Position numbers and translations under genes: made by a program
Origin: Okamejei kenojei
Taxonomy: Eukaryota
Assembly (NCBI GenBank): GCA_035221665.1
Contig: CM069159.1
Coordinates: 19,468,001 to 19,532,000, forward strand
DNA: 64,000 bases
Reading direction: 5' to 3'
The notes under the pieces: generated by a model
The model's input: only the letters and a program-made list of their open reading frames with translations
Database searches by the model: none
What the model was told of the DNA's origin: nothing
In this document: one piece after another, positions 2,878 through 60,594 of the stretch
How the letters are laid out: the number at the start of each line of letters is the position of its first letter
Position numbering within the stretch: the first letter of the stretch is position 1

Positions 2878-3730
2878 CATGGTTGCTATGCACAAGAATC
2901 GCTTGGATTATTTCTCCCGTTTCATCTTAGTTGCACAAAGTGACCTTATAACCCACTTTTTCTAAAGCATGTGAGAACTCAAATCCATCTTAGCTGATCA
3001 CAGCAAGAAATGCTGCTCCATTTTCCTAATTGGTTGTATGAAACAGGAATTGGGTGCATACATTTTGCAATCTGCCCAAAGCACAATTTTTAACTTCAAG
3101 ATTTGGGCTAATAATAACTGACGGACATAAAATTCCAACTTTCATTCCTTATACATTAGTTGGTTAGATCAAGACATAAATGAAATATGTTTAAGAAGGA
3201 ACTGCAGATGCTGGAAAATAGAAGGTAGACAAAAACCTGGAGAAACTCAGTGGCTGAGGCAGCATCTATGGAGTGAAGGAAATAGGCAACGTTTCAGGTC
3301 GAAACCCTTCTTCAGATTGAGATGAAATATGGGTATTTTCAAAACGCTGAATATATTTTCTTTTTGTATTTGTTTTTAAACAGGCATTAAACATTTAAAA
3401 GTCACCCTGATATCCGGCAAACAGGGATCGCTGAAGTGTCCCCACTCATTAAAGATCACAGATAAAAATTATATTTTGTACTGGAATAAAGAAGCTAAAA
3501 CAATTTGCTATGAGAATTTCAATGAGAAAGCTGGTGTACAAGGGTGTACTGGATTTCAACTTCTCGTAAAGGAAGAAGAAATTACCTTAACTATTGCAGA
3601 AGTGAAATACTCAGATTCTGGAAACCACACTGGCTACTTGTACACAAAAGATGAACATTTTGAATGCAAAGTAAACTTGCTTGCAAGACAAGGTAGGTGT
3701 TTTAAAAATTGGTGTGGCTTTGAGGTACTT
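2878..3730 (+). repeat. Local ~850-bp segmental duplication (partner ~8910-9758) carrying an IgV exon plus upstream intron
   Basis: Direct by-eye alignment gives roughly 97% identity; both copies include the same repeat insertion in the intron. Confidence 0.95.
3384..3692 (+). pseudogene. Leaderless duplicate IgV exon (open 309-nt phase-1/phase-1 exon)
   Basis: ttttaaacag|GCATT...CAAG|gtaggt. Encodes IKHLKVTLISGKQGSLKCPHS...YWNK...TICY...GCTGFQLL...DSGNHTGYLY...FECKVNLLARQ. It lies upstream of the only signal-peptide exon found. Confidence 0.7.
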
Positions 3731-33665: not shown

Positions 33666-33765
33666 TCAGAATTCAGAAGTAATTATGTTTTCTTTTTGGC
33701 TATTAACATTTTCCGGAGAGTCACTTTTGGCCAATCTGCTTTGGTTCCTGTGTTGCTTTGAGTTC
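33666..33765 (-). CDS. Cytoplasmic exon NSKQHRNQSRLAKSDSPENVNSQKENIITSEF*
   Basis: Strong acceptor ctttgctctttgtctttctcattag; open in the required phase 2; 3' boundary uncertain. Confidence 0.55.
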
Positions 33766-35287
33766 CTAATGAGAAAGACAAAGAGCAAAGTTGTGAGGAA
33801 TAAGTTCCCAAATTAATCTGTGATGCTCAATTAAGAACCACCCAGGAATATAAATCCAGAGTGATTATTCACAGCTTCTTCCTCAAACACACAACCAACT
33901 CTGTCACTCCACCCAATCCATTTACTTTTTTAGTAAAATGCCTTAGGTTATTTACCAATTTCAACATCAGTACAAGCAAATTCTACTCAAAGTTTAATGA
34001 ATTTTCAACTATAAAGAATGACAAAGGCGTGCCCGTATTCTATGATTTATCTTCTGAAACTACTTTCAAGTGATTCCTCAGGATCAATTTTGGACACCCT
34101 TTTTTCCACACTGTGAAGATATCCAGTTAACCTCAATTTTATCATTCTATTTATCTGTTATGCACTTCTGGCCATGTTACTCCCAGTTTTCTCAGCATGG
34201 CCCGGATGTGTATATCAATGAAACATTGGAAGTTAAATGCAATTACAAAATGCTTTAATTGCAAAGGAATCTGAGTACAAAGAGAGACACATTTGGTTCC
34301 AATTGCATACGAGTCTGGTGGGACTGCATCTCAAATATTATGTACTGGTCTGGTTTCCCAATCCAAGAAAGGAATTTATGTGATGAAGAGAGAGTAGTTG
34401 ATTCCTGGAATGGTGGCATTGTCATGAGGAGACATTAGGCAGACTGGGCCTATACCAATTATATTATATGTGGTACATTGTGATTGCATTGAGGCATTAA
34501 AAGTTATTATCATGGGAAAGTGAGGATGATGTTTCCCAAGACGAGCATGTTCGGAACCAGCATTTACAGTCTCACAATAAGGAGGTCACCATTCTGGACA
34601 GGAAGGAGAACAAGGTCCTTCACCTTGAAGATAAAGGTGTTTAAAATTCTTACCTGGGTGGAGGCTTAGTCAGTCGAGAGGGAGATGGGGAGAATTTTGG
34701 ATAATAAGGGATATGCAGGAAAGTTGTATTGAGATAAAATATCAAAGCAATGATCTTATTGAAGAGTTGAACAGGTGCAAGGGACCAATGGCCTGCATGT
34801 GTTCTTGTGTGATGAGCAGATTGAATGTGAATGTTTGCAGCTTCTGGTACATTTTCTGTCCATCATCAAGGCCATAAAAAATGACTCGCTGTCTGCACCT
34901 GCCGCAGCTGACCTTAGCCCGTGATCTGACAAATCTCTCATCTGAATCTTTTTTACTTTCAGATGGGGCTGTTGCAATGCTCTCTGACCAGCCCCATGGG
35001 CTTCTCTCACCTGTGGTTCAGCCAAACCATGGTGTTAAGCATTTGGTCTTACACTAAACCTTATTCCCTTTATTGTGTATCTATACACTGTGGATGGCTT
35101 GATAGCAATCATGTATTGTCTTTCTGCTCACTAGTTAAATTTTCACTGTACCCCGAGTCTGAGTTTCAAAATTCCTCATATCCTTGCTCCTTGCTGTTGT
35201 AAACCTGCTTACTACTTAATGCATATTATTGGAGAAAAAATGTTCATCATTTGTATAAAAAGGATAAAAGGCTATTGTAATGCTTAC

Positions 35288-35312
35288 CTCCATTTGCAGA
35301 AGCAGTCCCGAT
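35288..35312 (-). CDS. Cytoplasmic mini-exon DRDCFCKW(R)
   Basis: cctttttattgtatag|...TGGAG|gtaagc; 25 nt, phase 1 to 2. Confidence 0.65.
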
Positions 35313-35439
35313 CTATACAATAAAAAGGACACATTATTAGGGAAATTCTCCCATACGTGTCATTTTTTTCATCTGGAATCTGATTTTCATAATCTAGAAA
35401 ATTTGTTTTTATTCAATGACTTGACACATTTGACACTGG

Positions 35440-36328
35440 CAAACGGCCTGGTGGAGAGGTTCCACCGGCAGCTCAAGGCAGCACTGAAGGCGCGACCCTC
35501 AGCCCGGACTGGATGGAAGCACTGCTGTGGGTCTTGTTGGGCATCCGAACTGCGCCTAAGGAGGACTTGGGCTCAAGTTCAGCGGAGCTCGTTTACGGGT
35601 CGCCGCTCACGGTGCCCGGGGAGTTTGTTCCGTCGGCGCCGCGGCAGCAGGGACCGCCCTCATCCACCCTACAGCGCCCTCACGAGTGAGTTGGCAGGCA
35701 CGCGCCCGTGCCCACGACCCGCCATGGGACATTCCGCCCGCACGTGCCATCCGCATTCTGGGACTGCCCCTATGTTTTCCTGTGCTGTGACGCCCACCGG
35801 ACGCTGGTCCAGAGGCCGTATGAGGGCCCGTTACGATTGCTGGAGCATTGAGACGACCTTTGGACATGGGGGGCCGGCCGGAGGCCATGTCGATTGACCG
35901 GTTAAAGCCGACACATTTGGACATTGACCAGCCGGTGCTGGTTGCCCAGCCTCGTCCGTGAGATCGCCCCTCTTTGCAGCTCCCTCCTCCTGTCCCTCCA
36001 CCTGTGCCTCCGCCGGCCGCTCTGTTGGCCGACTTCCGTACGCGGTCCGGTCGGGTTGTACGCCCGCCGGTGCATTTCGTGCCTCCTGTTCTGGGGGGGG
36101 GGGGGGGAGCTGTGACGGCTCCCAAGGGTCAGGCTATTCCTCTCTCGAACCCCTCGGCATGGGAATGAACTAGTCCGGGGGCGGCCCTTAGCGACACGGT
36201 TAAAGGACAGGGGTTTATGCGCGATTGTTTTCTTGCAGACCCGACTGGACAAGAGAACAACAGCGAATAAAATATCTCCCGAAACACCCGGCTCCTTGCC
36301 TTCATTTCGGGCTTATCGCCGCGCTACA
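35440..36328 (+). mobile_element. Gypsy 3' end: integrase C-terminus, polypurine tract (~36093-36110) and 3' LTR (36111-36328)
   Basis: ANGLVERFHRQLKAALKAR and RTRSGRVVRPP remnants, a G-run PPT, and a TG...CA-bounded 218-bp LTR containing AATAAA; GC-rich. Confidence 0.88.
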
Positions 36329-36818
36329 CCATCAACCTTTCAAATTTTGACTCAACTGTTCTACATTGAGTAGAATGCTCATCCATCATTTTTGTAGGAC
36401 CATCTCTCTGAGTATTGCATGTTGCCACACTCTATTCAACTGTAATAATGGAGCTGACCATCGTAGGAATACTTTATTCCATAGGTATCGTACCTTGAAT
36501 TAATTTGTCATTCCAAATTCTTTCATTTCAATAAATAATCACATCAAGTGGGGAATGTTTCGGAAATAACAGCAGATGTTGGTTTAAATCGAAGATAGAC
36601 ACAAAATGCTGGAGTAACTCAGCGGGACAGGCAGCATCTCTGGATGCTGATGAACAGTCTGATGAAGGGTCTCAACCCCAAATGTCGCCCATTCATTCTC
36701 TCCAGAGATGCTGCCTGTATCGCCAAGTTACTCCAGCATTTTGTGTCTACCTAAGTGGTGAATGTTAACAGCTATTAAAACTTCTGCTTCACATTTGTTT
36801 GTTTACTAGTTAATTTAC

Positions 36819-36896
36819 CTTTCCTGCAGCAGAGCAGTAACAAAATCACAGTCGTCATGAAGATGGGCACCGTTACAAATCGGACAGGGAAATGAC
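36819..36896 (-). CDS. Transmembrane exon (S)HFPVRFVTVPIFMTTVILLLLCCRK
   Basis: tttttgttgtcttacag|...GAAAG|gtaaat; 78 nt, phase 1/1; hydrophobic span followed by a basic stop-transfer. Confidence 0.85.
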
Positions 36897-37349
36897 CTGT
36901 AAGACAACAAAAATGTGGGTTTCTTGTGGTTTGCATCAGTATAAAAGAACGCAGGCAAATATCAGTTAAATTGTCTTCCTTGCGAATCGATTCAGGGCAG
37001 TATTAATATCATGAATTGCAAATTCATTTCTCATTAATGCTGCTGTAGATTCTCCATGCCATTATTTGTGAGATAGGATTGTACCAGCCCATCTAGGTTT
37101 AGATTTCTTATTGACATGTTCACCGAGGTACAGTGAAAAGCGTTGTTTTGGATGACATCAAAGATCACATAAATACAATCGCATCAAACTCAAGCACAAT
37201 AAATAAAGCAAGGGAGAAGATGCAAAGTGCAGAATATAGTTCTCAGCATTGTAGCACATCAGTTTCATAGACAAAGCCCATGATAGTAAGTTTGCAGATG
37301 ATATCAAGATTGCTGGGCTCACGGACTGTGAAGAAGGATGCCAAAGTTT

Positions 37350-38000
37350 ACATTATTTTGGCTGCTTTTGTGAGGCAGAGTGGAGTGTAGATGGAATCAA
37401 TAGTGGGGAAGCTCTGGTCTGTATGATGGTCTGGGTACATCTACTATCTCTGCCATTTCTTGCAGCCTGGGCAGAACTGCTCCAAAACCAAGATGTGTTG
37501 CAACCCAACAGTAGGCATTCTATGGTGCTTTTGTGGAAGTTTGTAAGAGTCATTGAATAATATTATTTTATAAGAGTCATTGAACTAATAATATTAAAGG
37601 CAAGAAAATTGAAGATCTCAACCATTTCCGCTTCATGGATGGTGATTTGGGCATGTTTTGCACCACACTTTCAGACATTGATAACAAGCTCACTCATCTT
37701 GTGAACATTGAGGGAAAGGTTATTGTCGATTTGTATAGACTTCTGTCCATATTTTAACAACACCATTTTACTAAGTACTCTATCTCCTTCCTTTCTTGTC
37801 ATTGTTCATGATCCAGCCCACCACACTGGAGTCATCTGCAAATTTGTGGATGGATTTTGAACCAAATTTGGCCGTACAGTCGTTAGTGTATCTGGAGTAT
37901 AGTAAGGGACTGAAAAAGCATCCTTGCAGGGCACTGATATTGACAATTATTGTGGAGGAGGTGTTGTCAGATTGTTGTCTGGGCATCAGAAAATCAAGAC
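37350..38000 (-). mobile_element. L2-like LINE RT fragment
   Basis: QGCFFSPLLYS.YTNDC...IHKFADDS motif. Similar decayed L2 pieces at ~22970-23210, ~23990-24780 and ~30270-30660. Confidence 0.75.
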
Positions 38001-38875
38001 TCATTGAAAGAATCCAAATGTTATTGATTTACTGCAATCCATTCAAATTGCAGTTAAGACTCGTATACTCATTGTATAATGTTGGCATAAAGTGAGAGGG
38101 GGAATGTTATTGGATAAGTGAGGGGCAATTTTTTTTTTGCATAATGTGGTGGGGGCCTGGAACACACTGCCAGGGCTTGTGGTGGAGGCAGCTACGATAG
38201 TGGTGTTTAAGAGGCTTTTGGATAGGCACATGGATATGCAGGGGATGGAGTGATATGGATCTTGTACAGTCAGATGAGATCAGTTTAACTTGGCATCATG
38301 TTTGGCACAGAAATTGTGATACACTCTTCTATTTTAATAGCTGACATATCTGACCACCATAGAATATTAATATTAATATAAAAATACCATTAATGTTAAT
38401 TTGTGATTCCAATGTTCGATTGTTCTCATTGACATTAATTCATTCCATCACCAATGTACTTACCCTCTGAAATGGGGATGCTTATATAGATGAATGCAAT
38501 TCAGGCTGCTTCATGTATGGTTCACATAGGCAAAATATGGCAACCGAGCCTTCCTTTCAAGAACTAGAGAGCTGTTCTAAGCTACTATCTACCTCATTGG
38601 AGACCCTTGGACTATTTTTAATTGGACTTTACTGGACTTTATCTTGCACGAAACATATTCACACTATTCCTTTATCATGCATCTATCTGTACAGTGTGGA
38701 TGGCTCGATTGTAATCATGTATTGTCGTTCTGCTGACTGGAAAGACCGCAGTGTAGAATATCATTGATTTGGCAGGAGCCACAGTTGTTACAGGAACCTG
38801 ATTTTGCACATCACCCCTCTATAAATTAACAAATTAGAAAAATATTGTGATTTTGGCCAATATAATGGTACTTAC

Positions 38876-39189
38876 TTTTCCAATCTGATGTCAGGTATAC
38901 TCTCACAGATAATTCTTTGTCGCCATATGCATTGGAAGCTTTGCAGATATACTTTCCATTGAAGGAATCATCAATCTTCTCTTTCTGCAGAATTGAATGA
39001 CTTAATCCATTATCAAATTGTATCCTTTCAGTTTGCTCTCCTGATTTCATCCAGATGACCTTGGATTACTGTCCGTGGTACAATTTAGTTGAAGATACGA
39101 CTGAGGTTCAACATAGATGATGTCTTGGAGCAGAGGCTGCAATTGATGCGCAATGGAATTCCTGTAATGTATTGCTGGCTGTGGACCAT
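38876..39189 (-). pseudogene. Ig C2/I-set exon with frameshift (same lesion in copy 60219-60532)
   Basis: YGPQPAI...YLQLNCTTDSNP [frameshift; TGA at 39047-39049] KVIWMKSG...FNGKYICKASNAYGDKELSVRVYLTSDWK|gtaagt. 314 nt, not a multiple of 3. Confidence 0.85.
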
Positions 39190-39779
39190 CTCAATCAGAA
39201 CAGTGAAAAAAAAGGCATTAGTCACAAGGGCAGCTTCAACAAAGCTTTGAAAGTACCACCTGTCACCCCTTGGTATTTGTGCCTCATTTTTAACCTGTTA
39301 TTTAAAATAGATTTTGTATATTTGAAATAACATTTTGATTAACAATACTGAATGTTTTATAAAAATTGTGGAGGTTATTTGGCCAATTACTCCAGTGTTG
39401 GCATAAAAGAGTCCCAGGATTTTGCCCATAGGGGGCTTGTCTTGCCATACAAGACTCCATCACAAGAGGTGTGGCCACGTACTAAGTGAAAAAACAGCAC
39501 CTAATGTTCTGCTCGGGTAGCTTACACCCCAATGGCATGACATTGGATTCTTCAATTGACAGTTATACTTTTCCTAGCCCTTTGGCCTAATGGGTGGCTT
39601 CAACCAAATGGGCCCATGAGAAGTGAATGCAAACAGACTGGCAATTAATCCAAGTTGCCATGACAGTTCAAGATTTGATGGTTTGTTTGGGATCAGTGGT
39701 GGTGAGAGAAAGGCAGCAAGCTTAATAGTTGACTGATAAGAAGTGCAATTTGTTTTAATACTGTCTGAGGTTTGTGGAC

Positions 39780-40090
39780 ATTTGAACATCCCTGTTAAGA
39801 TTTTAGCAACGTGCAGGTTATCTCAATTTGGTCTCCACTACATTGGAGGAACCAATGCAAGATGGTGTTGTAGTTTTGATGAGCACCTGCACTCAGTGCT
39901 TGTAGATATCACCCTTCCTAGTATTTTCCACTTAATTCCCAATTCTACATCTATTCTGACCTGGAAATCAGTGGCCTGCTCCACTCCCAGTAGCGACGCC
40001 CGACATAAACTAGAAAAACATCTATCATCTGTTGAGGTACTTTTGCAATTTTCTGGAATGAATATTACATTTTCCAACTTCAGATACTGC
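39780..40090 (+). mobile_element. Penelope-like element GIY-YIG endonuclease remnant
   Basis: C...FGLHYIGGT.AR....FDEHLHSV...ARHKLEKHL resembles the PLE GIY-YIG domain (GLLYIGET...F.EHL.SV). Confidence 0.7.
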
Positions 40091-43000
40091 TCTCCTATTG
40101 TGTCCTTATGTTCCTTTCTCAAACACTTCATTTGAACAGTCATATGCTCTTAATATCTGATCTTTCTTAAATTATCTCCATTGTCTTGCCCCTTCATTCT
40201 CCCTCCAGCTATGCTTTGTAACTGTCAACCCTGCACTCCAGTAGAGTTACTGCAGCAGTAGAGTTGCTGCCTTACAATGGCAGAGATCCAGGTTCGATCC
40301 TGATGAAGTAGGGTGCTCTACTGAATTTGTCGTCCTCCCGTGACCTGCGTGGGTTTTCTCCGAGATCTTCAGTTTCCTCCCATACTCCAAAGATGTACAG
40401 ATTTGTGGGTAGGCTTGGTATAAATGTAAATTGTATAAATGTAAACTGTGCCTAATGTGTGTAGCAGTGTGTTAATGTGTGGGGATAGCTGGTAGGCGCA
40501 GACTCAGTGGGTCGACGGGCCTGTTTCCATGCTGTATTTCTAAACAAAACTAAACTCTCTCCAGCCTCACCATTTCCAAGGAAGGGTCTATGAATCAAAT
40601 TATTGTTTCTCTTACATCTGGACTGGGTGAGTTTTTCCAACATTTTGGTTCATGTTTCAGGTTTCAACATCTGTAGTTTTATGCATTAACTTCCTTAACT
40701 TTCTTCATTCAACTTAGTAAAATTCCACCTTCTTCAATCTTTCTGCAAGAACTGCATTCCTAAAACACTGTAATTATTCAAACAAATGTTTTTTCTCGCC
40801 TCTAGATCCTTGCTGAAATGGATAGCTAGAAATGTCCACCATGTTCCAGCTAACTCAATAATTGAGATTGAGAAAAGCATTGTTGAAATTTGTTACCAGA
40901 TAGAAGTATTTGCTATGTGGTCCATGGACTATAAATCTTTGCAGAATGCATTAGGAGTGACAATAATGCCTCATTGGGTGATTTCTATCCTTTGTCACCA
41001 GCCATGCTGTTTCGCTACATTTACAACATTGCATAGCTATCAGCATGGATTACTCACCAGGTAGGTCCCATTCAAAAATAATTAATTACAAACTGTTAAC
41101 TCTCAATCATCAGCAATGTCCATGAAAAGTAATGTTGGCATTGTTATCCTATGGAACGTGCTCACTTGTAGCCTACACCCTAGTGCTTAGTTTGGATTTT
41201 GATAGAACCACTTCATTTCACACCACATCCTGGCCAAATTTTCTAAGACTACAAGATCCAGAAGACCTTCACTACAGTCAATGTGAAAAACAGTCAAAGC
41301 TGCATTTCAGACTGAATAAATCAAGGTGGGAGGACAGTTTAATGATGTATCCATTTCTGACATTACCTAGTTATTTAAAAGGCTAGGTGAAATACTTAGA
41401 ACTTAGCCCATGTCCATGGTATTTAATTGGAAAATTGTAATGAAGAGCATAAAATAAACATACTTACAATTATACATTGAGTGTTATGTGTTGCATTGTC
41501 ACTCTTTGCTTGTTGCATGGATAGGATCTGACAAGTACAAAACTGTCCTGTGGTCTTGCAAGGTGGGAGTAAAAACTAATTTGATATTGTTTGCGTTAAA
41601 TGAGCCATCAGAGTTCCTGGAGGGGGAGAGTTTTGTGGGTAATATAAAATTCTGGTTTTGTAGCTTGAGTGTTGTGAAGAAGTTGCCATCGCATTGTGAT
41701 GTTCTCAGGATAAAATCCCCATGCATGGCAGTACAAAACAGATGCTTTCTCTGCTATTAAATCTCCCTGAGTCATTAGAATTTTTGGTGTAGATTCTGGG
41801 ACTGTAACAAATAACATGAAACAAAGTTATATGCTGCGGATATATACTTACATACTTATCCTTTCGTGCTAAATTTAAAAAAAACAAAGCATGTTAATTA
41901 GCATTTGTCCACTTAATGTATATAGGTCTGAAGAAGGGTCTTGACCTGAAACATCACCCATTCCTTCTCTCCAGAGATGGCTGCCTGTCCCCCCTCTGTG
42001 TTACATCAGCTTGTGTGTCTATCTTTAATTAATATGTAAAAAAGCAATTCCACTTCAGTAAGCTGTGAATCAATCAGTGATATATATTATTTTTAACCTG
42101 GTGAAACCAATGTCTTGTAGAACCCACATAAAAAGCCTTTCCATGTGTTATAAATTGTATTGTTAATTGTCAACTTGGACACAGAGCATGACCTACTCGG
42201 CTTTGGCCCCCTTAGTTATGGCTGACTTTGGGTGATCCAGGATGTCTTCCCTCTATGGGGACGCCTGTGCTTGACTTTGTTTAACGTGGGGAGACTGGTT
42301 TGCACAGACAGCCAACCCACAGTCCTTGTCAGATCTGGGTCAGGATCCAGTGGCATGGAGTCCAAGTCGACCGGAGACCCTTTGCTACTGCAGCCTTCAT
42401 CCCCTTCCCAGCTGTTGTTGACGCTCCCAAAATGTCAGCCATCATCCTCCGCCTGTTCCATGTTGAGGACTTGGTTGGATTGCTCCTTGCCCACTATTGT
42501 TTTTTGATATAATCTATATTAAGCAAAGACCTCTCAGGGCATATGTTGGTAAGGGACACTAAAAGTGGAGATAAACTCAGTGGGTCAGACTACATCTCTG
42601 GAGAAGGATCAGGTGACGATTGGGTCTTGACCTCTCAGGACCTTTTTCACCTTCAGTTGTGAGTACTGTGGGGGAGAAGTAAAAACAGAGCCAAGATCCT
42701 ATATGTCTTGGGTTGGTCAAACTGTTCAGGAGAGGGGGAGTAGAGTTAGGGGCCAAGGATGGAATAATTGTCGAGATCTCTGTAGGAAGCAGGAACAATT
42801 GAAGGATCCATTTTTCCGGACAAATAATAGAGAGTTGTTTTATGCAGGAATAGACAGAGTTACAAGTTATATATTTAACTGTTAGTGCCACCCCCGAGTA
42901 TACTTGCGGTCATTGGCCTAAAGTGAAAACAAAACTTGGCAGATGAACAGGTAAAACAGAGATGCATTTAAAAACATAAGAGATGGATTTAAACAATTGT

Positions 43001-43439
43001 TGTGGGTCCTGAAACTGAACACCCAGGATTAGAATGTGGACAAGGAACCAGAGATATGTCCAAAAGAAAGGTGCAACATTCTTGGATGAAGATATGCAGA
43101 CAAGGATGAGGAAGGGAATGGTGGCAGTCTGATAAGGGGTCAGGTACATTGCAGGAGAGAGGAATAATCTGCCAGGAGAAGAGAAAAATGTAAAGACCAT
43201 GGTACGAATCTTTCAGACTTAACCCCTCCCCCCCCCCCCCCCCCTTGATTAAGCAGTGATGAATGAGAATTTTGGAGGGGTTATAGAGTTATTGTGCTGT
43301 ATAGAATGAAATAAGCCCTGTGGACAACCATAAGCCATTCCCGACAAGGTTAGGATTGGTTCTAGTCCCATTTTCTTGCGCTTACAACCTAAGTGTATGT
43401 GCAATAGGTTATCTAACTGCAAACGATCTATATTATTCA

Positions 43440-46400
43440 GTAGTTTACTGAATATAAATAGTAAGATTAAACGAGACCTACGTTTGAAGTTTGATCTTTA
43501 TTAAGGAGTTACGTGGTGGATTACGTGAAGAAGTCCCGGCCAGTTCGCATGCGGCATAATCTTCAAAGCGCGGTGTTGAAAACACTAATAACAGTTATCA
43601 AAGTACATTGTAAGTTGAGCATACTTGAGAACTACCAGATGACCTTTGTGAGAGAGGGTGGACTTGGAGGGCATGTAATCCACACACCGTTGATGTCTTA
43701 TAAAATAAAGAATCAAACTTCAACTGGTAGGTTCTCGTTTAATCTTCTATTTTACTTTGGAGTCAAACGAGTGATTCCAGAAGGGTTCAAAAGCTTCGTG
43801 TTTTCAGGCCGCAGAATTCAAAATCCCTGCTTCTCACTGCATGATTTGACTCGGATATGAGAAATAATCAATTAGGGGCATTATGGTGACATTGCATTAA
43901 CTGCAGTAACACATTTATTTGAATAACAAAAGACAGTAACCCCTCTAACACAGGGGAATTAAAACGACATTTTACGGTATTAGCAACTGCCCCGGTTCGG
44001 CAATCGGACGTTTGTAGAACGGTGAAAAGCAACTCATTTGACCACCCGGCGGCTGCGAGAATATGGTTCGAATGGGACGTCTACCGCCCTTCCGCCAAGG
44101 TGCTGCTGCCCTAGTGAAATGAGATGTAAAAAACATCGTGTTATACCTGCTCAAACCAATACTTATTTCAACCACCTCAGAGAATAGTCTGTACTGAAAC
44201 TTTTGTTGGCTTCCTGTAACAACCCGGTTTCCATATTTCGTAAGGCCTGTAGCTTCATTGTATTGCAGCAATGTGGTCTTTAACATAGACATGGATCCGT
44301 GGGATATGCGAATAAAAACAATCTTGAACTCTGTACACACCTGGCCTGCTCTGTTGGGTAGGTCCATAAATGTAGAAGGTCAAAAATGCAGCCAACTTCC
44401 ATTCCGTCTAGCTGCAGCTTTTGCAATGTCTGCACTCATTGAGCTGTTACTGAGCCATGAGCTTGACCACCTTTTCATGGTGACTTTGGCCAAAGTCAGA
44501 GATGTGTCAGGTGTCCACTGACGGAAAGTAGCTTGAGGACCAAGCTTACATCCCAGATTTGCGTTATACCTGGGTTAGAGGTCTGGAGTTATATTTCATT
44601 CCATAATCGAGAAACGAGGAGTATGAGACCCAAATAGGATGTTCTTCTGACCCCATCAATTGAGTACAAGACAATTGCACTTTAGCTGATGATCGCCTAT
44701 TACTCTACCCCTAATATAATGGGAGTGTTTACAGAACTCTAGAATATGCAAAAATTACCTGCCGTACAATATCCAATTTTATTTTGTACAACATAAAACT
44801 ACCATTTTTTAACTTCACAGAAATATTACTGCTTTTGAGTTCCCATCCTCCAGGCTGCTGGTGGCATGTCCACAGTTCGCCCAGACAGTACTCGTCCCAG
44901 ATTGGCCTTCTTAAACCTGCAATTAACAAATCAATACGGTCATTTATGGATGCTGTTCGCCAGTACCGGGATGCACCAGTAAATCCCTTTGTTTGGAACA
45001 GCATCAGGGGTTGTATCATTCAACTCCATTATCAAAGGGAACCATGGCGAGTAGGCCTGTGGGTTATCACCAGCCACCCCTGAGTGGCATCCTGCTTGAT
45101 TTTAAGCAGGACACCGACTTATGAGACTGAATGGTGGAAATGCAGATATAAACATACCACCCATGTATTGAGATAGCGTCAGTTGCTACTGCCCTGGATC
45201 TGTGTTCCCTTAAACTTATTTGGTTGCTGGTGGTGGAGTCTGGATGCGAACAAGTGTTATCTGGCCTTCCATATTTGACAGCTATATTCATTGAATACGT
45301 TCCGATTCAACATCGCCATTCTGTGTGGTCATGGAGTTTTCGTGACCTGTGTCTGCCACTATATTGAATCTACCTGGTAGATGAATAGCTAAAAAAGCCA
45401 AATATTGTTGTCTATACACCAGGGTCCCCCCCCCCCCAGAATTAAATTAGCCAGTTTTTCACAAGATGCCGATTGTCCACCCATGTGATTAACATACACA
45501 CTGCCGTGGTGTATGTCAATTTGAAGCCTAAATGCAGGTTTAGTTTGTGTTAGAACAATATGCCTTGAGTCCATAAATAAACTGCCAAAAGCTCTAAGTT
45601 AGTAAAGTTAATTCCCCATGTCTTCAGAAGCATGTCTTCTTCCGCCATTCCATCTGCCTCCACAGTGGAGCTCGTATCGTGGACCCAAACCTTGTGCACT
45701 GACATTCTGTCTGTAAGACCATGAAGGCTGTTCCAATCATAATTTGGGGAACTACTGGAACATGCTGTATCCCACCACTGCTGGTCAGTAAACAGCATCT
45801 GCGGAGAACGTCAGGGGCCTTTTATTAATTGGCCGAATGTTCTGGGAGTGCCTGTTCCTTTGCCCTCTGTATATGCGGGTAGTGCAAAGGCCCATACTGA
45901 ACTTTCCGAATAAAGCTGGCACTAATTTTCGGTGCAGGTGGCCACTTCATATGTGAAGGTTGGTGCTCTTCAAAAGCTTAATGCAACCATCATTTTATTC
46001 CACTCTTTTCTCCCATGGGTTGAGTCACTTCTTGTGAAGTGAATCAATTGTGAAACCCAATTAGTCTAATTTGTTGGGTATGTGGTGTTAATTTGGATTT
46101 CTAGGGATGATGGGTGATACCCCAATTTTTCATAAGTGAATGTAACATCTGCAACGGATCTTCAGATAATGTCATTGGTTCGTCCTATGATTAAGATATC
46201 ATCAAGTTAAATGCCATAACCACACTGATCCTGGACTCTAAGTAGCCCAGTACATGGCTGTAAACCAAATTAGTGAATATTCTAGGAGCTGAGTTAACCA
46301 AGTAGGCAGTTGCATTGGGGAATTGCCATAATTGATTAATCCAGGTAAATTTCAAGGCTTTCTATCTTCCAAATGAAACTGACACTGTGTTATGTGCATT

Positions 46401-47905
46401 TTTCAGATCTATAGTTGCACATATAACACTCATCTGGAAAGCAGTTGCTTGGCAGGAACAAATGTTTCCATTTGAAGTGTCTATACTGTACAAAAGGGTT
46501 ATGACCTTTGTCAGATCAAAATAATTATACATCCTCCGTACTTATTTGGTCGGGGAGGAATAATATTGGACTTGGTGACCGACCTCTCAATGACGCCTTT
46601 ATTACACTATATGTGCAAGTTCAGCCTGAACCCTCCACAATTTCTTCTGTTTGTGTAATATTGGAGTGTTTGCTAGGTCCATGCTGGGGGGCCAATCACC
46701 ATTTGGATCGAATCAATCGAAACCCTTGAATTATACTCTCATGATAATGGATCTGAGGTTAATTTGCTTCCATTCCTCTGGAAACAGATGTATCTAGCCC
46801 CAAGTTTCGGCTGTGTTGTACTTAATATGTTCCCATGAGAACGGCCCACCTAACTTCCTTGGTAACTGGTGTGACACTGCTGTCCCAAGTCTACTGGCGG
46901 GAAGCCATCACGTGTTGTCCGTGTTCCGCTGTAGAGTACCAAGGCGCCTTGCGGCGACGGCCGGACTGTTCCTGGTGTAGACCCGGATTCGGCACCTCTT
47001 CTGTGGGATACCTTCTCCTCACAGATTTGCCGGACGATCGGTGTCTTAATCATGCCACAGTTTTTTGCTTCGTCATCCTAACTCCTTCACGCGAATCGCG
47101 AGGTCTTACCCAAAGTGTAGGTTGGGTGGCTGCACATTGTGGGCTTGCAAGAGCGCTGCAAACTTAGGGTTTGTCACTCTTCCTGTGGGACAATGATCTC
47201 AAAGTGGGCGACTGCCAAGCAACCCATAGTGCCTCTTGAGGCGTCTCAGACAGATTGCCCTCCAGCCATTGTTCTAGCGAATGCGTGATTCCTGAACACG
47301 CAGCTCCAGGATTCTCTGCTGCTTTAATTCCTGGGCACGCTTTGCGCACGCCACATTCTGACCACATATTACCTTGTGTACTGGTGGTCACTTTTGCAAC
47401 ACGCAGGCCTTGGGGTTCTTGCGTATGCAACAGGTGCTCCATTTGGGATAAACCATTCAAAAACAGTGTCCAGCTCGGAGGGGAATCTTCCCGGCCCGAC
47501 TCCCCCGATCCGTGGGCATGGTCCAGACTTTGAATTGCCTTATCCTTGACTTGGGGCAGGCATCCGTGCTTTGCAGCACTAATCTGCAGTCGCCCGCTCC
47601 AGTCCGGCGGACTGTGCACGGGATGAGGCAGACGTTCACAGACCGCACGCCCGCGGCTGTCTACGATTTTGCGCAGGTCGCCTCATTCCCCTTTGCCCGT
47701 TGTCCTTGGTGCTACTAAAGAGATACACACGGCACCACAGCAAAACGGACTTGAACTCTAGCTAAGTTTTTCCCACTTACCCTGGAGTCTAATTACTTAC
47801 CGCTGGAGGAGCTCTGTTCCTTCCAGCATCCGTGCGCCATAGCGGCTGACGTAATTGAGTGCATGCGCCACTGGGGGACTTCTTCACGGTATCATCTCAC
47901 GTGTT
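43440..47905 (-). mobile_element. DIRS1-type tyrosine-recombinase retrotransposon, near full length (low-quality sequence)
   Basis: YR C-terminus FTSHFTRAAA...FYKRPIAE (43972-44367); RNase H remnants NLELLAV and LQID...YVNHMGG; RT remnant LDDILI (~46190-46215); terminal inverted repeats plus an internal complementary region. Confidence 0.85.
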
Positions 47906-48672
47906 TCTGATTAAAATTTAATTCTAAACAAGTATTGATATATTAGGCAATCCAAATATGTGGAAGAGTTGTATTTTAAGGAATTGTGAAGCCTGCTAAT
48001 AGAGTCACAACAGGCGTGGAAACAGGACTTCGGCCCATCTTGCCCACGCTGACCTAGTTGCCCCATCTAAATTGGTACCACCTGCCCGCACTTGCCATTA
48101 AACCCTCTAAAACCCATCCTACCCTTCCTGCCCAATACCTGGTGCAGTAATAATATTGAAAGAGGCACAAATTAATTTCAGTGATAGTCTTAATACCTAT
48201 CCTATGATTCTTTGCATTAACTGCTTATGCTGCAGATCTGAGTGAAAATGTAAATTTTTGTAAACGCTGGAGTATATCTGGCAGAGCTGTGCTGTGGTAA
48301 TATAAAACCTTTAATTGTTCCTCTTAACCACTGTTGTAAACCTATGCTTGCTCAGTGTTTCTACTTGGAGAAGACTTTATTTTATGATCCCTTTACCTTG
48401 GTACATAACGCACAGACTTCATTTGACAGAACTTTCACATGGGTGTAAATTACTTATTCTTCTTCTTGGTTGGATGGAATTACTATTTATTAGCCCGACT
48501 TCCCATGGACGTGATTAAGCAATATCATGTGTATCTAAATGTGGTATGATATGTAAACTTTATTCATTACACATATTAGTGGGCTGCATTTCTGCAGATA
48601 TTATTTAAATACTGATCATAAACTGTATTGTGTAGTGACTGGAGATCATCATAGTTTTGCAAATAACTTGAC

Positions 48673-49010
48673 CTTAAACCCATATTGGGGTCCTTGGCCC
48701 ATTTCATTGAATTGGAGGGAAGCATTTAGTAACATTCCCTCACAAAGTATATGTGTATACAGAGTGACAAACGTTACATTTTTCAATCTTCAGTTGTTAC
48801 GTAAAGTGTTTGAAAACATCCTGAGGGGGAGGAGGTGGATTGGCTGAGCGTTTGTAAGTTGCTTCAGACCCTTTCGGCGATGGTCCGTATACCAGGAACT
48901 CGGTGCCTGGCATCACACTTGCATTATAGTATATGTACAGGTTACGTGACGGTTTGTTGCTCATACATGACCAGGCGGGCTGGGTCAACTCTGTGAATTC
49001 AGCGGTACTC
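48673..49010 (-). CDS. IgV exon with J-like G-x-G motif (low-quality sequence, several apparent indels)
   Basis: Across frames: TAEFTELTQP / VMYEQQTVT / TCTY / SWYTDH / QLKIE / NVT...ILCEGMLL...MGQGP. Acceptor tgttccatcag. Confidence 0.6.
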
Positions 49011-49948: not shown

Positions 49949-50448
49949 NNNNNNNNNNNNNNNNNNNNNNNNNNNNNNNNNNNNNNNNNNNNNNNNNNNN
50001 NNNNNNNNNNNNNNNNNNNNNNNNNNNNNNNNNNNNNNNNNNNNNNNNNNNNNNNNNNNNNNNNNNNNNNNNNNNNNNNNNNNNNNNNNNNNNNNNNNNN
50101 NNNNNNNNNNNNNNNNNNNNNNNNNNNNNNNNNNNNNNNNNNNNNNNNNNNNNNNNNNNNNNNNNNNNNNNNNNNNNNNNNNNNNNNNNNNNNNNNNNNN
50201 NNNNNNNNNNNNNNNNNNNNNNNNNNNNNNNNNNNNNNNNNNNNNNNNNNNNNNNNNNNNNNNNNNNNNNNNNNNNNNNNNNNNNNNNNNNNNNNNNNNN
50301 NNNNNNNNNNNNNNNNNNNNNNNNNNNNNNNNNNNNNNNNNNNNNNNNNNNNNNNNNNNNNNNNNNNNNNNNNNNNNNNNNNNNNNNNNNNNNNNNNNNN
50401 NNNNNNNNNNNNNNNNNNNNNNNNNNNNNNNNNNNNNNNNNNNNNNNN
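49949..50448. other. Assembly gap (500 N)
   Basis: Run of exactly 500 N flanked by low-complexity, error-rich sequence. Confidence 1.
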
Positions 50449-53400: not shown

Positions 53401-56400
53401 GTCTTCTGTGTACCAAGTCTAAACTTCCAATTCTATAAAAAATGTAAGATATGTGCTTTATTTTATACCATATAATTATAACTCGATGTGCATAACATTT
53501 CTGACTGTGGCGTTCTCCCGATGAGGTAAACATTATTGTGTGATTGTACACTAATAAATATGCAAAAGCAGTGTTTGTCATATGCTTTAATTTCATAAAA
53601 GAGGTACACACTCAGTATTACATGTTAATGGTAATGTTCCTTTGATGTAGATGCGGTAAGTTATAATAAATCTTATTATTGTTTTCAGTGTGTTTTATGT
53701 TTTCTAAAATAATGCTTTTTATGATAAGGTAGACAAATATGATGGTGTAACTCAAGCGGGTGAGGGCAGCATTTCTAAGAGTGAAGGAAATAGGGCTACA
53801 TTTTGGGTTCGACCAGAAAACGTTGACTATTTCCTTTGAATGCAATGGAAGCTGAGCTTTGTTATTCTTTGTAAAAACACTCTTCCTGACAAATGCAATG
53901 ATAGACCTTATGGAGGCTTACGATCTTTAGCGAGGAGGAGCAGGTGGTGGGAGAGATCAGGAAAATGGTCAAACAAGTTTGCCACAAATGTCAATTTCAT
54001 ATATTACACTCTAAATGGGGGGGGGGGGGAGAACTGAACATCTGTTGCAAGTACTTTTTAGCCAATCTGTGGTAATAAACTTCAAAACATTGTCAGTCAT
54101 TTAGATCCATCTCCTTTGGTACTTTATTGGGACTCTTGATATAAAGTAAAAAAAAAACAAATAACTAAAGCTATCCACGAGAATAAGCCATCTCTGTATT
54201 ACCTTTCAGCTGAGAGCACAAGATCATGTGAGAAAATTATTTATTAGATTGGGAATGGAAAAGTTACATTTACCAAAGAAAGAAAATTCCATCTTGTTAA
54301 AAAATTTTAAAATACACTAAGTGTTTTTTGCTGGAGCACCGAACAGGTCAGGCTTTCAGCAATCACTGGAGAACATGGATAGGCAACATTTTTTGGGTGT
54401 GAGGACAATTCTCAGATTGTCGAGAAGGAGTTGGTCGATTGTGAGAAACAAAGACTGTTTGATGTAAACCAACAAAGGGCAGGCATTGGGTGGGGAGTCC
54501 ATGCGAGTGCCCATGGCGACAAATTTAACTTGAAGAATGTGCAAGGATTAAAAAAGAGTAATTGAGAGCGAAAAAGATTCACCAGGTGGAGAGGATGTTA
54601 GTGGAGGGAAACTGAAATTTGGTCTCTCTGGTTAGGGAAAAAAAGTGGAGGCCATGAGACTGGTGGGGGATGGAAGTGTAATAAAGGTAAATCCTCTTGT
54701 TCCTCAAGAAATGACATTTTTGTCTTCAGGAATACACCAGGATATTGGGGTTTCTACAAGAGGGCGTAACAGAAAGATTTCTAATGGACCTCTGTAAAAC
54801 TATCATGTCGATAATTCAGAAGTAATTATGTTTTCTTTTTTGGGATATTATCATTTTCCGGAGAGTCTTTTTTGGCCAATCTGCGTTTGGTTCCTGTGTT
54901 TGCTTTGAGGTTCCTAAGTGATAAGACAAAGAGCAAAGTTGTGTGAAGGAATATTGTTCCCAAATTAATCTGTGATGCTACAATTTTGAAGAACCCCCGA
55001 GGAATATAAATCCCAGATGTGTGTTTTCACAGCTTTCTTCCTCAACACAACAACCAACTTGTCACTCCACCAATCCATTTTACTTTTTTAGTAAAAAGCC
55101 TTAGGTTATTTACAATTTCAAACATCAGTACAAGCAAATTTACTAAAGTTAATGAATTTTCTCAACTATAAAGAATGGACAAAGGCGTGCCCGTATTCTA
55201 TGATTTATCTTCTGAAACTACTTTCAAGTGATATCATCTAGGATCAATTTTGGACACCCTTTTTTCCACTCATGTGATAGATATCAGTTAACTCAAATTT
55301 TATCATTTTCTATTTATCTGTTTTGCACTTATGGCCATGTTTATCCTAGTTTTTCAGCATGGCCCGGATGTGTATATCAATGAAACATTGGAAGTTAAAT
55401 GCAATTACAAATACTTTAATTGCAATAATGGCATTGAGTACAAAGAGCGACACATTTGGTTCCATATTGCATACGAGTCTGGGGTGGGACTGCATTCTCA
55501 AATATATGTACTGGTCTGGTTTTCCCAATCCTTGAAGAAAGGAATTTTATGTGATGAAGAGAGAGTAGTTGATTCCTGGAATGGTGGCATTGTCATGAGG
55601 ATAGAGCATTAGGCAGACTGGGCCTATTACCATTATATTATATGTGGTACTTTGTGAGTTGCATTGAGGCATTAAAAGTTATTATCACTGGGGTAAAGTG
55701 AGATGATAGTTTCCCCAAGACGAGCATGTTCGGAACCAGCATTTACAGTCTCACAATAAGGAGGGTCACCATTCTGACAGGAAGGTAGAAACAAGGTCCA
55801 TTCACCTTGAGGAAGATAAAGGTGTTTAAAATTCTTACCTGGGTGGAGGCTTAGTCAGTCGAGAGAGATAGATGGGGAGATTTTTGGGATAATTAGGGAT
55901 ATGCAAGGAAGTTGTATTGAGATAAATTTCTAGCAAATGATCTTATTGAAGAGTTGAACAGGTGCAAGGGACCAATGGCCTGCATGTGTTCTTGTGTGAT
56001 GTGCAGATTGAATGTGAATGTTTGCAGCTTCTGGTACACTTTTTTGTCCATCATCAAGGCCATAAAAATTGACTCGCTGTCTGCACCAGCCGCAGCTGAC
56101 CTTGAGCCCGTGATCTGACAAATCTCTCATCTGAATCTTTTATTTACTTTCAGATGGGGCTGTTGGCAATGCTCTCTGACCAGCCCCTTGGGCTTCTCTC
56201 ACACTGTGGTTCAGCCAAACCATGGTGGTTGAAGCATTTGGTCCTTACACTAAACCTTATTCCCTTTATTGTGTATCTATACACTGTGGATGGCTTGATA
56301 GCAATCATGTATTGTCTTTCTGCTCACTAGTTAAATTTTCACTTGTTACCCGATCTGAGTTTCAAACTTTTTACCTCATTCCTTGCTCCTTGCTGTAGTA

Positions 56401-59400
56401 AACCTGCTTACTACTTAATGCATGTATATTATTGGAGAAAAAATGTTGATTCATCATTTGTATAAATAAAAAAGATAAAAGGTACTAGTTGAATGCTTAC
56501 CTCCATTTTGCAGAAGCAGTCCGAATCTATACAATAAAATGTGACACATTATTAGGGAAATTCTCCCATATCGTGTTCATTTTTTTTTATCATCTGGAAT
56601 TGATTTTCATAATCTAGAAAATTTGGATTTTATTCAATGACTTGACACATTTGACACTGGCAAACAGCCTGGTGGAGAGGTTTCCAACGGAAGCTCAAGG
56701 CAGCTCTGAAGGCGCGACCCTCAGCCCTGGACTGGAATGGAAGCACTGATGTGGTCTTGTTGGGCATCCCGAACTGCGCCTTAAGGAGTATGGGCTCAAG
56801 TTCAGCAGGGTGAGCTCGTTTTAGGGTCGCCGCTCACGGTGCACCGGGGTGTTTGTTCCCTCGGCGCCGGGAGGGACGGCCCTCTGGGTCCACCCTACAT
56901 ACAGAACGGCCCTGTGCACTTACGAGTGAGTTGGCAGGCCACGCGCCCGTGTGATTGACCCGCCTTGGGAACATTCCGCCCCCGCACGTGCCATCCGCCT
57001 TTGGGTTGACTGCCCCTTGTTTTTTCTGTGTGCTGTTGGACGCCCACCGGTGGTCCAGAGGCAGTATGAGGGCCCGTTCCAAATTGCTGGACGCATTGAG
57101 GACGACCTTTGGAATTGGGGGGCCGGCCGGGAGGCCATGTTGATTGACCCGGTTTTTTTTAAAGCCGGCAGGACAATTTGGGACATTGGACCAGCGGGTG
57201 CTGGTTGCCCAGCCTCGTCCGTGAGATCGCCCCTCTTTGCATGCTCCCTCTACTGATCCTCACCTGTGCTCCTGCAGCCCCGCTGTTGGCCGACTTACCG
57301 TACCGCGGTACCGGTCGGGTTGTACGCCCGCCAGTGCATTTTGTGCCTCCTGTTCTGGGGGGGGAGCTGGTGACGGCTCCCAAGGGTCAGGCTATTCCTC
57401 TCATCGAACCCCTCGGCTGGGAATGAACTAGTTGGGGGCGCCCCTTAGCGAACATCGGTGTTAAAGGACAGGGGTTTATATACGACGATTTTTTTTTTCT
57501 TGCATGACCGACTGGACAGAGATTCAACAAGCGAATAAAATATCTCCCCCGTTTAAACACCCGGCTCCTTGCCTTCATTTCGGGCTTATCGCCGCGCTAC
57601 ACCATCAACCTTTCAAATTTTGACTCAACTGTTCTACATTGAGTAGAATGCTCATCCATCATTTTTGTAGGACCATCTCTCTGAGTATTGCATGTTGCCA
57701 CACTCTATTCAACTGTAATAATGGAGCTGACCATCGTAGGAATACTTTATTCCATTGGTATCGTACCTTGAATTAATTTGTCACTTCCCAAAAATTCTTT
57801 CATTTCAATAAATAAATTATCACATTCAAGTGGGGAATGTTTCGGGGAAATATAACAGCAGATGGTTGGTTTAAATCGAAAGATAGACACAAAATTTGCT
57901 GGTTGAGTAACTCAGCGGGACAGGCTGCATCTCTGGATGTGATGAAACAGTCTGATGAAGGGTCTCAACCCAATTGTCGCATTTCATTCTCTTCAGAGAT
58001 GCTGCCTGTCCCGCCGGAGTTACTCCAGCATTTTGTGTGTACTACCTAAGTGGTGGAGTGTTAACAGCTATTCTTTCTTCTGCTTACATTTAGTTTGTTT
58101 ACTGTTAATTATATCGTTCCTGCAGCTGTGCAGTTACAAAATCACAGTCATCATGAAGATTGGCAAGTTTGCATTAATCGGACAGGGAATGATCTGGAAG
58201 ACAACAAAATGGTGGGTTTCTTGTGGTTTGCATCAGTATAAAAGGACGCTGGCAATATCAGTTTTAAATTGTACTTCCTTGCGAATCGATTCAGGGGCAG
58301 TATTAACTATCATTGAATTGCAAATTAATTTCTCATTAATCAGCTGTTATGTATTCTCCATGCCATTATTTGTCAGATAGGATTGTACCAGCCCATCTAG
58401 GTTTTAGATTCTTTTTGCCATGTTCACCGAGGTACAGTGAAGAGCGTTGTTTTGGATGACATCAAAGATCACATTAAATACAATACGCTTATCAAACTCA
58501 AGCACAATAAATTAAGAGCAAAGGAGATAGTTGATTAGGGAAGATGCAAAGTGCAGAATATAGTTCTCAGCATTGTAGCACATCAGTTTCATAGACAAAG
58601 CCCATGATAGTAAGTTTGCAGATGATATCAAGATTGCTGGGCTCACGGACTGTGAAGAAGGATGCCAAGTTTACATTATTTTGGCTGCTTTTGTGAGGCA
58701 GAGTGGAGTGTAGATGGAATCAATAGTGGGAAGTCTGGTCTGTATGATGGTCTGGGTACATCTACTATTCTCTGCCATTTCTTGCAGCCTGGGCAGAACT
58801 GCTCCAAAACCAAGATGTGTTGCAACCCAACAGTAAGGATTCTATGGTGCTTTTGTGGAAGTTTGTAAGAGTCATTGAATAATATTATTTTATAAGAGTC
58901 ATTGAACTAATAATTTTAAAGGCAAGAAAATTGAAGATCTCAAACATTTCCGCTTCATGGATGGTGATTTGGGCATGTTTTGCACCACACTTTCAGACAT
59001 TGATAACAAGCTCACTCATCTTGTGAACATTGAGGGAAAGGTTATTGTCGATTTGTATAGACTTCTGTCCATATTTTAACAACACCATTTTACTAAGTAC
59101 TTCTTCCTTTGCCTTGTCATTGTTCATGATCCAGCCACACCTACTGGAGTCATCTGCAAATTTGTGGATGGATGGATTTTGAACCAATTTGGCCGTACAG
59201 TCGTTAGTGTATCTGGAGTACGTAAAAGGGACTGAAAAAAAAGCATCCTTGCAGGGCACTGATATTTGACAATTTATTGTGGGAGGTGTTGTCAGATTGT
59301 TGTCTGGGCCATCAGAAAATCAAGACTCATTGAAAGAATCCAAATGTTATTGATTTACTGCAATCCATTCAAATACGTGCAGTTAAGACTCGTATACTCA

Positions 59401-60594
59401 TTTGTATAATGTTGTCATTTAAAGTGAGAGGGGGGAAAGTTTATTGGATAAGTGAGGGGCAAGTTTTTTTTTGCATAATGTGGTGGGGGCCTGGAACACA
59501 CTGCCAGGGCTTGTGGTGGAGGCAGCTACGATAGTGGTGTTTAAGAGGCTTTTGGATAGGCACATGGATATGCAGGGGATGGAGTGATATGGATCTTGTA
59601 CAGTCAGATGAGATCAGTTTAACTTGGCATCATGTTTGGCACAGAAATTGTGATATACTCTTCTATTTTAATAGCTGACATATCTGACCACCTTAGAATA
59701 TTAATATTAATATAAAAATACCATTAATGTTAATTTGTGATTCCAATGTTCGATTGTTCTCATTGACATTAATTCATTCCATCACCAATGTACTTACCCT
59801 CTGAAGTGGGGATGCTTATATAGATGAATGCAATTCAGGCTGCTTCATGTATGGTTCACATAGGCAAAATATGGCAACCGAGCCTTCCTTTCAAGAACTA
59901 GAGAGCTGTTCTATAGCTGCTATCTACCTCATTGGAGACCCTTGGACTATTTTTTAATTGGTCTTTAACTGGACTTTATCTTGCAAAACGAATACATATT
60001 CACTCTATTCCATTTATCATGCATCCATCTGTACAGTGTGGGATGGCTCGATTGTAATCATGTATTGTCGTTTGCTGACTGGAAGACCGCAGTGTTAGAA
60101 TTATCATTGATTTGGCAGGAGCCACAGTTGTTACAGGAATCTGATTTTGCACATCACCCCTCTATAAATTAACAAATTAGAAAAATATTGTGATTTTGGC
60201 CAATATAATGGTACTTACTTTTCCAATCTGATGTCAGGTATACTCTCACAGATAATTCTTTGTCACCATATGCATTGGAAGCTTTGCAGATATACTTTCC
60301 ATTGAAGGAATCATCAATCTTCTCTTTCTGCAGAATTGAATGACTTAATCCATTATCAAATTGTATCCTTTCAGTTTGCTCTCCTGATTTCATCCAGATG
60401 ACCTTGGATTACTGTCCGTGGTACAATTTAGTTGAAGATACGACTGAGGTTCAACATAGATGATGTCTTGGAGCAGAGGCTGCAATTGATGCGCAATGGA
60501 ATTCCTGTAATGTATTGCTGGCTGTGGACCATCTCAATCAGAACAGTGAAAAAAAAGGCCCCCCCCCCCCCCCCCCCCCCCCCATTAGTCACAA

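Follow-up and report, generated by a model that had tools for sequence, protein, structure and literature searches.

The minus strand of a 64,000-nucleotide stretch of the skate Okamejei kenojei (contig CM069159.1, positions 19,468,001 to 19,532,000; this whole stretch is called the window) carries the exons of an immune-type receptor with a V domain, a C1 domain, a C2/I domain and a transmembrane (TM) segment. We consider this gene to be probably the predicted activating member, now frameshifted, of a cluster of V-C1-C2 receptor genes; with partners that bear ITIMs (inhibitory motifs of the immunoreceptor tyrosine-based type) it would make up a pair that shares one ligand and sends opposite signals. 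The paired-receptor family behind it is real, probably undescribed and wider in range than first proposed; the copy that drew attention to it is likely a false duplicate, and the gene duplicated is itself likely null.

A six-frame reading of the window confirmed minus-strand exons for V, C1, C2/I, TM, a 25-nt segment and the tail. They lie in a block (29459-49697) that is repeated at 50450-70997, either side of a 500-N assembly gap. Coordinates called extended carry the window numbering past the window end on the same contig (C29), and "flagged copy" denotes the exon set that a sequence-only reading of the window had singled out. The features are as follows.

33666-33765, minus strand: last coding exon, flagged copy; tail without tyrosine, ending ITSEF, compare the stingray homologue P0049
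35288-35312, minus strand: cytoplasmic 25-nt exon, flagged copy
36819-36896, minus strand: TM exon, flagged copy; intact, its outer end carrying Arg (FPVRFV)
38876-39189, minus strand: C2/I-set exon, flagged copy; 314 nt, frame shifted by a 7-nt deletion, one substitution relative to the second copy
41468-41801, minus strand: C1-set exon, flagged copy; nine 1-nt indels relative to the clean copy
48673-49010, minus strand: V exon, flagged copy; error-rich, G-Q-G legible, with the 10-nt loss that the second copy also has
49949-50448, no strand: 500-N assembly gap separating the two block copies
54810-58195 (approximate boundaries), minus strand: TM, small and tail exons, second copy; carrying indel damage
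60219-60532, minus strand: C2/I exon, second copy; identical 7-nt deletion near 60403
about 62873-63199, minus strand: C1-set exon, second copy; intact, 327 nt
69985-70322 (extended coordinates, beyond the window), minus strand: V exon, second copy; 338 nt, with the 10-nt deletion

Pfam assigned the clean C1 copy to the C1-set (E=4.5e-12), intact paralogous V exons to the V-set, and the C2 exon to I-set/Ig_3. The G strand is encoded within the V exon itself, which stops at a GT donor, and sites resembling recombination signal sequences (RSS) were absent from the five V regions scanned. The sequence-only reading had described a non-rearranging V(J-like)-C1-C2-TM receptor with a G-Q-G motif in the V domain and an unambiguous C1-set domain, and had expected a better V exon just past the window end; all of this was borne out, the second-copy V exon at 69985-70322 having kept the motif, legible there as G-Q-G-T. 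It had also described ordered, phase-compatible exons of a single receptor gene. The exons and their domain layout stood, but no intact reading frame runs through them, and the gene is one half of an Arg/ITIM pair, likely duplicated in the assembly and frameshifted in both copies.

Ten of the 11 V matches in the genome reached E<=0.005, and all of these fell within one stretch of C29. B1 (V at 220.7 kb) and B2 (V at 282.8 kb) are encoded on the opposite strand, and the ITIM-bearing partners stand head-to-head with the window gene, about 150-240 kb off. B2 encodes an intact 491-aa protein (leader-V-C1-C2-TM-tail) in 10 exons, with tail motifs TIYAVV, VSYADI and SEYSVV; its acceptors are AG and its donors GT, except for a GC donor after the leader, and its 28-nt exon was chosen as the best match to a homologue. 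In B1 a stop follows immediately past the TM (236735-236836, extended), and an Amblyraja gene model ends at the same residue, which suggests a tail-less form common to both. A third copy of the Arg-TM and tail exons lies at 96.0-104.0 kb (extended), with a GC donor at its TM exon and without C1 or C2; across a gap from it lies an intact V exon, V193 (192823-193167, extended). Combined, the two could make a V-TM(Arg) receptor with the layout of NKp30. A decayed V exon fragment was also observed about 700 nt downstream of V193 (192160-192405, minus strand, extended).

To define the family beyond this genome, the V domain and profiles were searched against proteins. The V search listed 44 proteins, at least 11 of them family members by inspection, and profile searches added 5 of 12 and 10 of 14 matches as members, among the matches listed. 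The hosts were skates, rays and sharks, together with Polyodon, Huso, Acipenser, Conger, Albula, Aldrovandia, Megalops and Latimeria, and the source labels were Siglec-5/10/11/12/13/14, MAG-like, sialoadhesin-like, SIRP-like, hemicentin or hypothetical. The sequences of this cluster stand close to Leucoraja and Amblyraja proteins, as fits a skate. The family is therefore not chondrichthyan-specific, as had been supposed, because the ray-finned genera and Latimeria have members; the remark that no mammalian gene could be named as a match still stands, no mammalian orthologue having appeared in the searches run. Members from tetrapods, gar or chimaera were not among the matches listed, and a word-index search with the C1 exon, a weak search, gave no match among longer proteins.

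[quoted passage not shown] Both Arg and ITIM forms were present in elasmobranchs and coelacanth, and the coelacanth pair carried consecutive accessions, with identities of 98% (V) and 97% (C1+C2). Further, the ITIM form was covered from leader or V to tail by two Logan proteins, one of 515 aa on a 2326-base contig and one of 441 aa on an 1866-base contig; in this genome the exons that they match are spread over about 29 kb, so that spliced ITIM-form mRNA in a skate is implied. Runs X1, X3, X4 and X5 cover introns, so they behave as DNA, and X7 and X8 yielded nothing; none of these runs has a bearing on expression.

The V exon and the remaining exons of the window gene had different affinities. 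In C1+C2 trees, the window gene grouped with shark and ray Arg forms (95/94, and 98/95 in a later tree from which five near-duplicate or short rows were dropped), elasmobranch ITIM forms separated at 99/99, and the sturgeon and paddlefish Arg forms joined the Arg group at 88/86. In the V tree, however, the window V was nested among skate ITIM Vs (88/93). The approximately unbiased (AU) test rejected grouping of the window V with the single shark Arg V, both with five bony-fish/coelacanth rows left out (p=0.0009) and with all 23 rows (p=0.0003), as well as grouping of the window C1+C2 with skate ITIM forms (p=5e-7), although these p-values are somewhat flattering, because the groups were named after the first trees had been seen. 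Identity of the window gene to its ITIM partners was 75-82% in V and 30-34% in C1+C2. At the DNA level, likeness to B1/B2 (84-85%) took in only the V exon and about 50 nt more, ending some 45-55 nt outside the exon, and almost none was found for the C exons. These comparisons indicate that in skates the V exon alone is homogenised between Arg and ITIM forms, and both exon-limited conversion and one single exon swap would fit.

The family thus displays two traits of paired receptors, namely similar ectodomains that end either in an ITIM tail or in a charged TM with a short tail, and clustered genes with a homogenised ligand-binding exon. Recruitment of phosphatases is established for ITIMs, and the ITIM form would recruit SHP phosphatases. 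An outer TM Arg prefers FcR-gamma or CD3-zeta; the Arg form would pair with a dimer of either, its Arg meeting an acidic residue of the adaptor, which carries immunoreceptor tyrosine-based activation motifs, and activation would follow. TM exons that we take to be CD3-zeta-like (C12) and FcR-gamma-like (C24) were found in this genome. Passages of PMC4016189 describe pairing of charged-TM receptors with FcR-gamma or DAP12 through an acidic adaptor residue, and place the appearance of the common gamma chain with bony fish. Set against that dating, an FcR-gamma-like TM exon was observed here in a cartilaginous fish.

A similar arrangement is found in Siglec-11/16, where inhibitory and activating genes stand head-to-head, the ligand-binding V exon is gene-converted, and the activating member is often null through a small deletion; the relevant passages of PMC5701461 include a common null allele. 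In the skate, V-exon conversion would likely keep the ligand specificity of both forms matched, and the activating member has likely become a null allele or pseudogene, as SIGLEC16P in humans. As far as sequence can tell, the family works like Siglec-11/16 but is no member of it.

The null status of the window gene depends on how the two block copies are read. At 47.5-49.5 kb the copies differ by 123 indels, and only 11 of 109 substitutions are transitions, so that copy-versus-copy differences are chiefly 1-nt indels and transversions; the flagged V and C1 exons have 25 and nine indels, respectively, relative to the second copy, and both copies are at their worst beside the gap. The flagged copy is probably a false assembly duplicate. 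Importantly, two larger losses are common to both copies: a 10-nt deletion in V (relative to the paralogue V193), from which a stop inside the exon results, and in C2 the loss of 7 nt that are retained by DNA contigs from two related organisms, a single contig for each. As these shared multi-base losses differ from the error pattern, we infer that they are real, and the gene looks null in this genome. It seems unlikely that the gene is intact in life, a working activating receptor with two frameshifts introduced by assembly: the region is rich in errors, and for C1, TM and tail at least one copy has a clean exon, but losses of 7 and 10 nt recur in two copies that otherwise differ mostly by 1-nt indels, and two relatives keep the 7 nt.

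Several points weigh against reading the window gene as the activating half of a pair. The 10-nt V deletion was judged by paralogues, not by orthologous DNA, and a search for a leader exon of the window gene found none. For the Arg form, no transcript joining V, C1, C2 and TM was seen; its structure is drawn from the order of exons in the genome and from automatic gene predictions, and the elasmobranch models P0048, P0049, P0051 and P0060 have no full V. One shark Arg-form V only (Pristiophorus) anchors the conversion test. Among the matches listed, sturgeons and paddlefish had Arg forms only, and eels, bonefish and tarpon ITIM forms only.

We further examined the nature of the V domain. GxGT was present in 26 of 26 family V domains, FGxG not being conserved, and all 26 had an extra Cys pair spaced by 12-15 residues, 19-20 before the F-strand Cys, which is predicted to make a further disulfide; the elasmobranch consensus was YxCxVx[VI]Pxx[YF]PP. 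A structure model of V (mean predicted local distance difference test score 86) gave tied generic V-set matches at Z 11-12 in a fold search (TCR, single-chain antibody fragment, PD-1, P0, SIRP), light chains dominated sequence searches of PDB, and an ESM Atlas search returned mixed V-set clusters. The nearest outside V domains were a CD28X-motif V of this genome (45-50 bits against the V profile), frog NCR3 (40-44 bits) and two teleost proteins, taken by us to be NITRs because their I domain has six Cys. The NITR I score fell to 33-38 bits when the Cys columns were masked, equal to the level of SIRP and light chains, and in a reciprocal search a V cluster on C25, light-chain-like by our reading, scored 45 bits versus 31.5 bits for this family. 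Family Vs formed a clade (86/85) that excluded two SIRP Vs, and neither the deep C1 tree nor the deep V tree resolved a sister family. The proposed link to the antigen-receptor precursor found no support past V-set likeness of a generic kind: the V tree resolved no sister group, and the neighbouring genes were OPCML/NTM-like, JHY and B3GAT1.

That the family consists of divergent SIRP or Siglec homologues, as its automatic names say, and so belongs to a known paired family, appears quite improbable. Besides the Siglec-/SIRP-like source names, MAG and CD22 led the three-domain fold search, and the C1+C2 part resembles Siglec/MAG domains 2-3; domain 3 is Siglec-like, and in domain 2 C1-set scored above C2-set_2, or alone, in five of six full proteins (sharks and ray-finned fishes), C2-set_2 being higher in coelacanth. 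However, MAG and Siglec-8 matched the C1+C2 part of the profile only. The Siglec V-set has an essential F-strand Arg and no F-strand Cys, whereas the family V keeps the canonical B-F Cys pair and a J-like GxGT, and its F-strand Cys is followed by E, V, A, K or M in 12 of 12 aligned Vs, never by Arg. SIRPs were the best outside matches to the full profile, SIRP-alpha matching V+C1, and share with the family a VJ-type V with GxGT, a following C1, and ITIM/charged-TM pairs. The SIRP ectodomain is V-C1-C1 with a mid-membrane Lys, whereas here the third domain is Ig_3/I-set (C2/I) rather than C1 and the Arg is at the outer end of the membrane. SIRP Vs scored 29-30 bits versus 40-46 for NCR3, CD28X-like and NITR I domains, and no SIRP grouping appeared in the V or C1 trees, which resolved no sister family at depth.

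Other families share parts of this design. The CD28 family and NKp30, which has a TM Arg, offer the closest V backbone, with a proline-rich F-G loop and then GxG. As set out in parts of PMC11599192, CD28-family members (CD28H, CD28HL1-3, CD28X) consist of one V, a TM and a tail; the present family has three Ig domains, and the CD28-family EIP and PPP motifs of the CDR3 loop have no match in it. The NITRs of ray-finned fish likewise have a germline-joined J-like motif and both ITIM and charged-TM forms, and two of the four extra cysteines of their I domain are spaced like the extra pair of this family. In sections of bioRxiv 10.1101/2021.06.11.448072 and PMC2442602, NITRs are described as V-I proteins that lack a C1 and have a six-Cys I domain, whereas the family Cys pair is in the N-terminal domain, which has four conserved Cys and is followed by C1 and C2. 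UrIg, UrIg2 and other non-rearranging VJ-C1 genes, a class that includes chicken PRARP and Xenopus VJC1, resemble it in having a single-exon VJ, a C1 and no RSS. According to portions of PMC12227049 and PMC10751288, UrIg is linked with the MHC (major histocompatibility complex), UrIg2 is in the Ig/TCR complex, and further C domains are of C1 type; the present family differs in having one C1, one C2, a TM and paired tails, near B3GAT1 and JHY.

With relatives in sharks, sturgeons, eels and coelacanth, the family is likely a very old on/off pair of immune sensors. It is conceivable, though we hold this tentatively, that the pair was present in the last common jawed-vertebrate ancestor, with a germline-joined VJ and C1 and a V akin to NITR I and NKp30/CD28. 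If true, sharks, rays and coelacanth would gain in it a natural killer- or myeloid-type paired receptor that they have been missing; the passages concerned state that where SIRPs came from is unknown (PMC9652883) and report that coelacanth has no NITRs (PMC6795676). A VJ-C1-C2 pair running from skates to coelacanth under wrong Siglec/MAG/SIRP labels is a testable candidate for ancient paired signalling. The Siglec-11/16 pattern, in which homogenisation is limited to one exon and the activating member is lost, is likely seen here in a cartilaginous fish, and a Cys pair of NITR type, said to be unique to the I domains of NITRs, occurs here in a second family. Full-text literature searches listed no paper that describes this family, although a prior description, for instance in specialist papers, is possible.

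Within the wider cluster, the window blocks themselves are very unlikely to be a genuine recent tandem duplication. True paralogues do occur there (B1/B2 and the third TM-tail copy), but a true paralogue pair taken for comparison differed by seven indels, with transitions in 38 of 48 substitutions, unlike the block copies, which also flank a gap and deteriorate toward it. A second probable false duplication was observed at 107-186 kb versus 198-261 kb (extended), around a gap at 185865-186364, in which V130 and V220 differed by 13 indels.

The 267 flanking open reading frames scanned with Pfam were mainly repeats. Exons at -330 kb had OPCML/NTM as best matches, stereocilin/otoancorin-like exons (weak Pfam) lay at about -140 to -94 kb, a PALP-family gene, CBS-like by our reading, at 345-353 kb, JHY at 487-496 kb and B3GAT1 at 643 kb; OPCML, NTM, JHY and B3GAT1 are all at 11q24-25 in human. 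These neighbours did not show the region to be the MHC. In human, JHY neighbours CRTAM, and the nectin/CADM/CRTAM layout is V-C1-C2, with nectins and Necl-4 high in the fold search; even so, an adhesion molecule of this chromosome block in place of a signalling pair is most improbable, since CADM3 and nectin Vs scored 11 and 20 bits, lack GxG and grouped apart at 96/94, and opposite Arg/ITIM tails with V homogenisation fit signalling pairs better. Two candidate orthologies were also tried and rejected: IGSF6, prompted by the OTOA-like neighbour, as METTL9 lay on C22 instead, and CD28H, as CHAF1A, a marker of the CD28H region, lay on a different contig, C28.

Other Ig-type exons were noted along the way. 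A V exon with the published CD28X motif (YxC-x6-PPP-x5-GxG) lies at C6:14706724-14707038, and the nearest other C1 exons in the genome, on C26 and C18, are tapasin-like and B7-H6-like by our reading, with a cluster on C18. Within the window, two near-identical V-set exons at 3384-3692 and 9412-9720 (plus strand; Pfam E=0.006 and 9e-5) have the B-strand Cys and an extra Cys, with no F-strand Cys, and stand outside this family.

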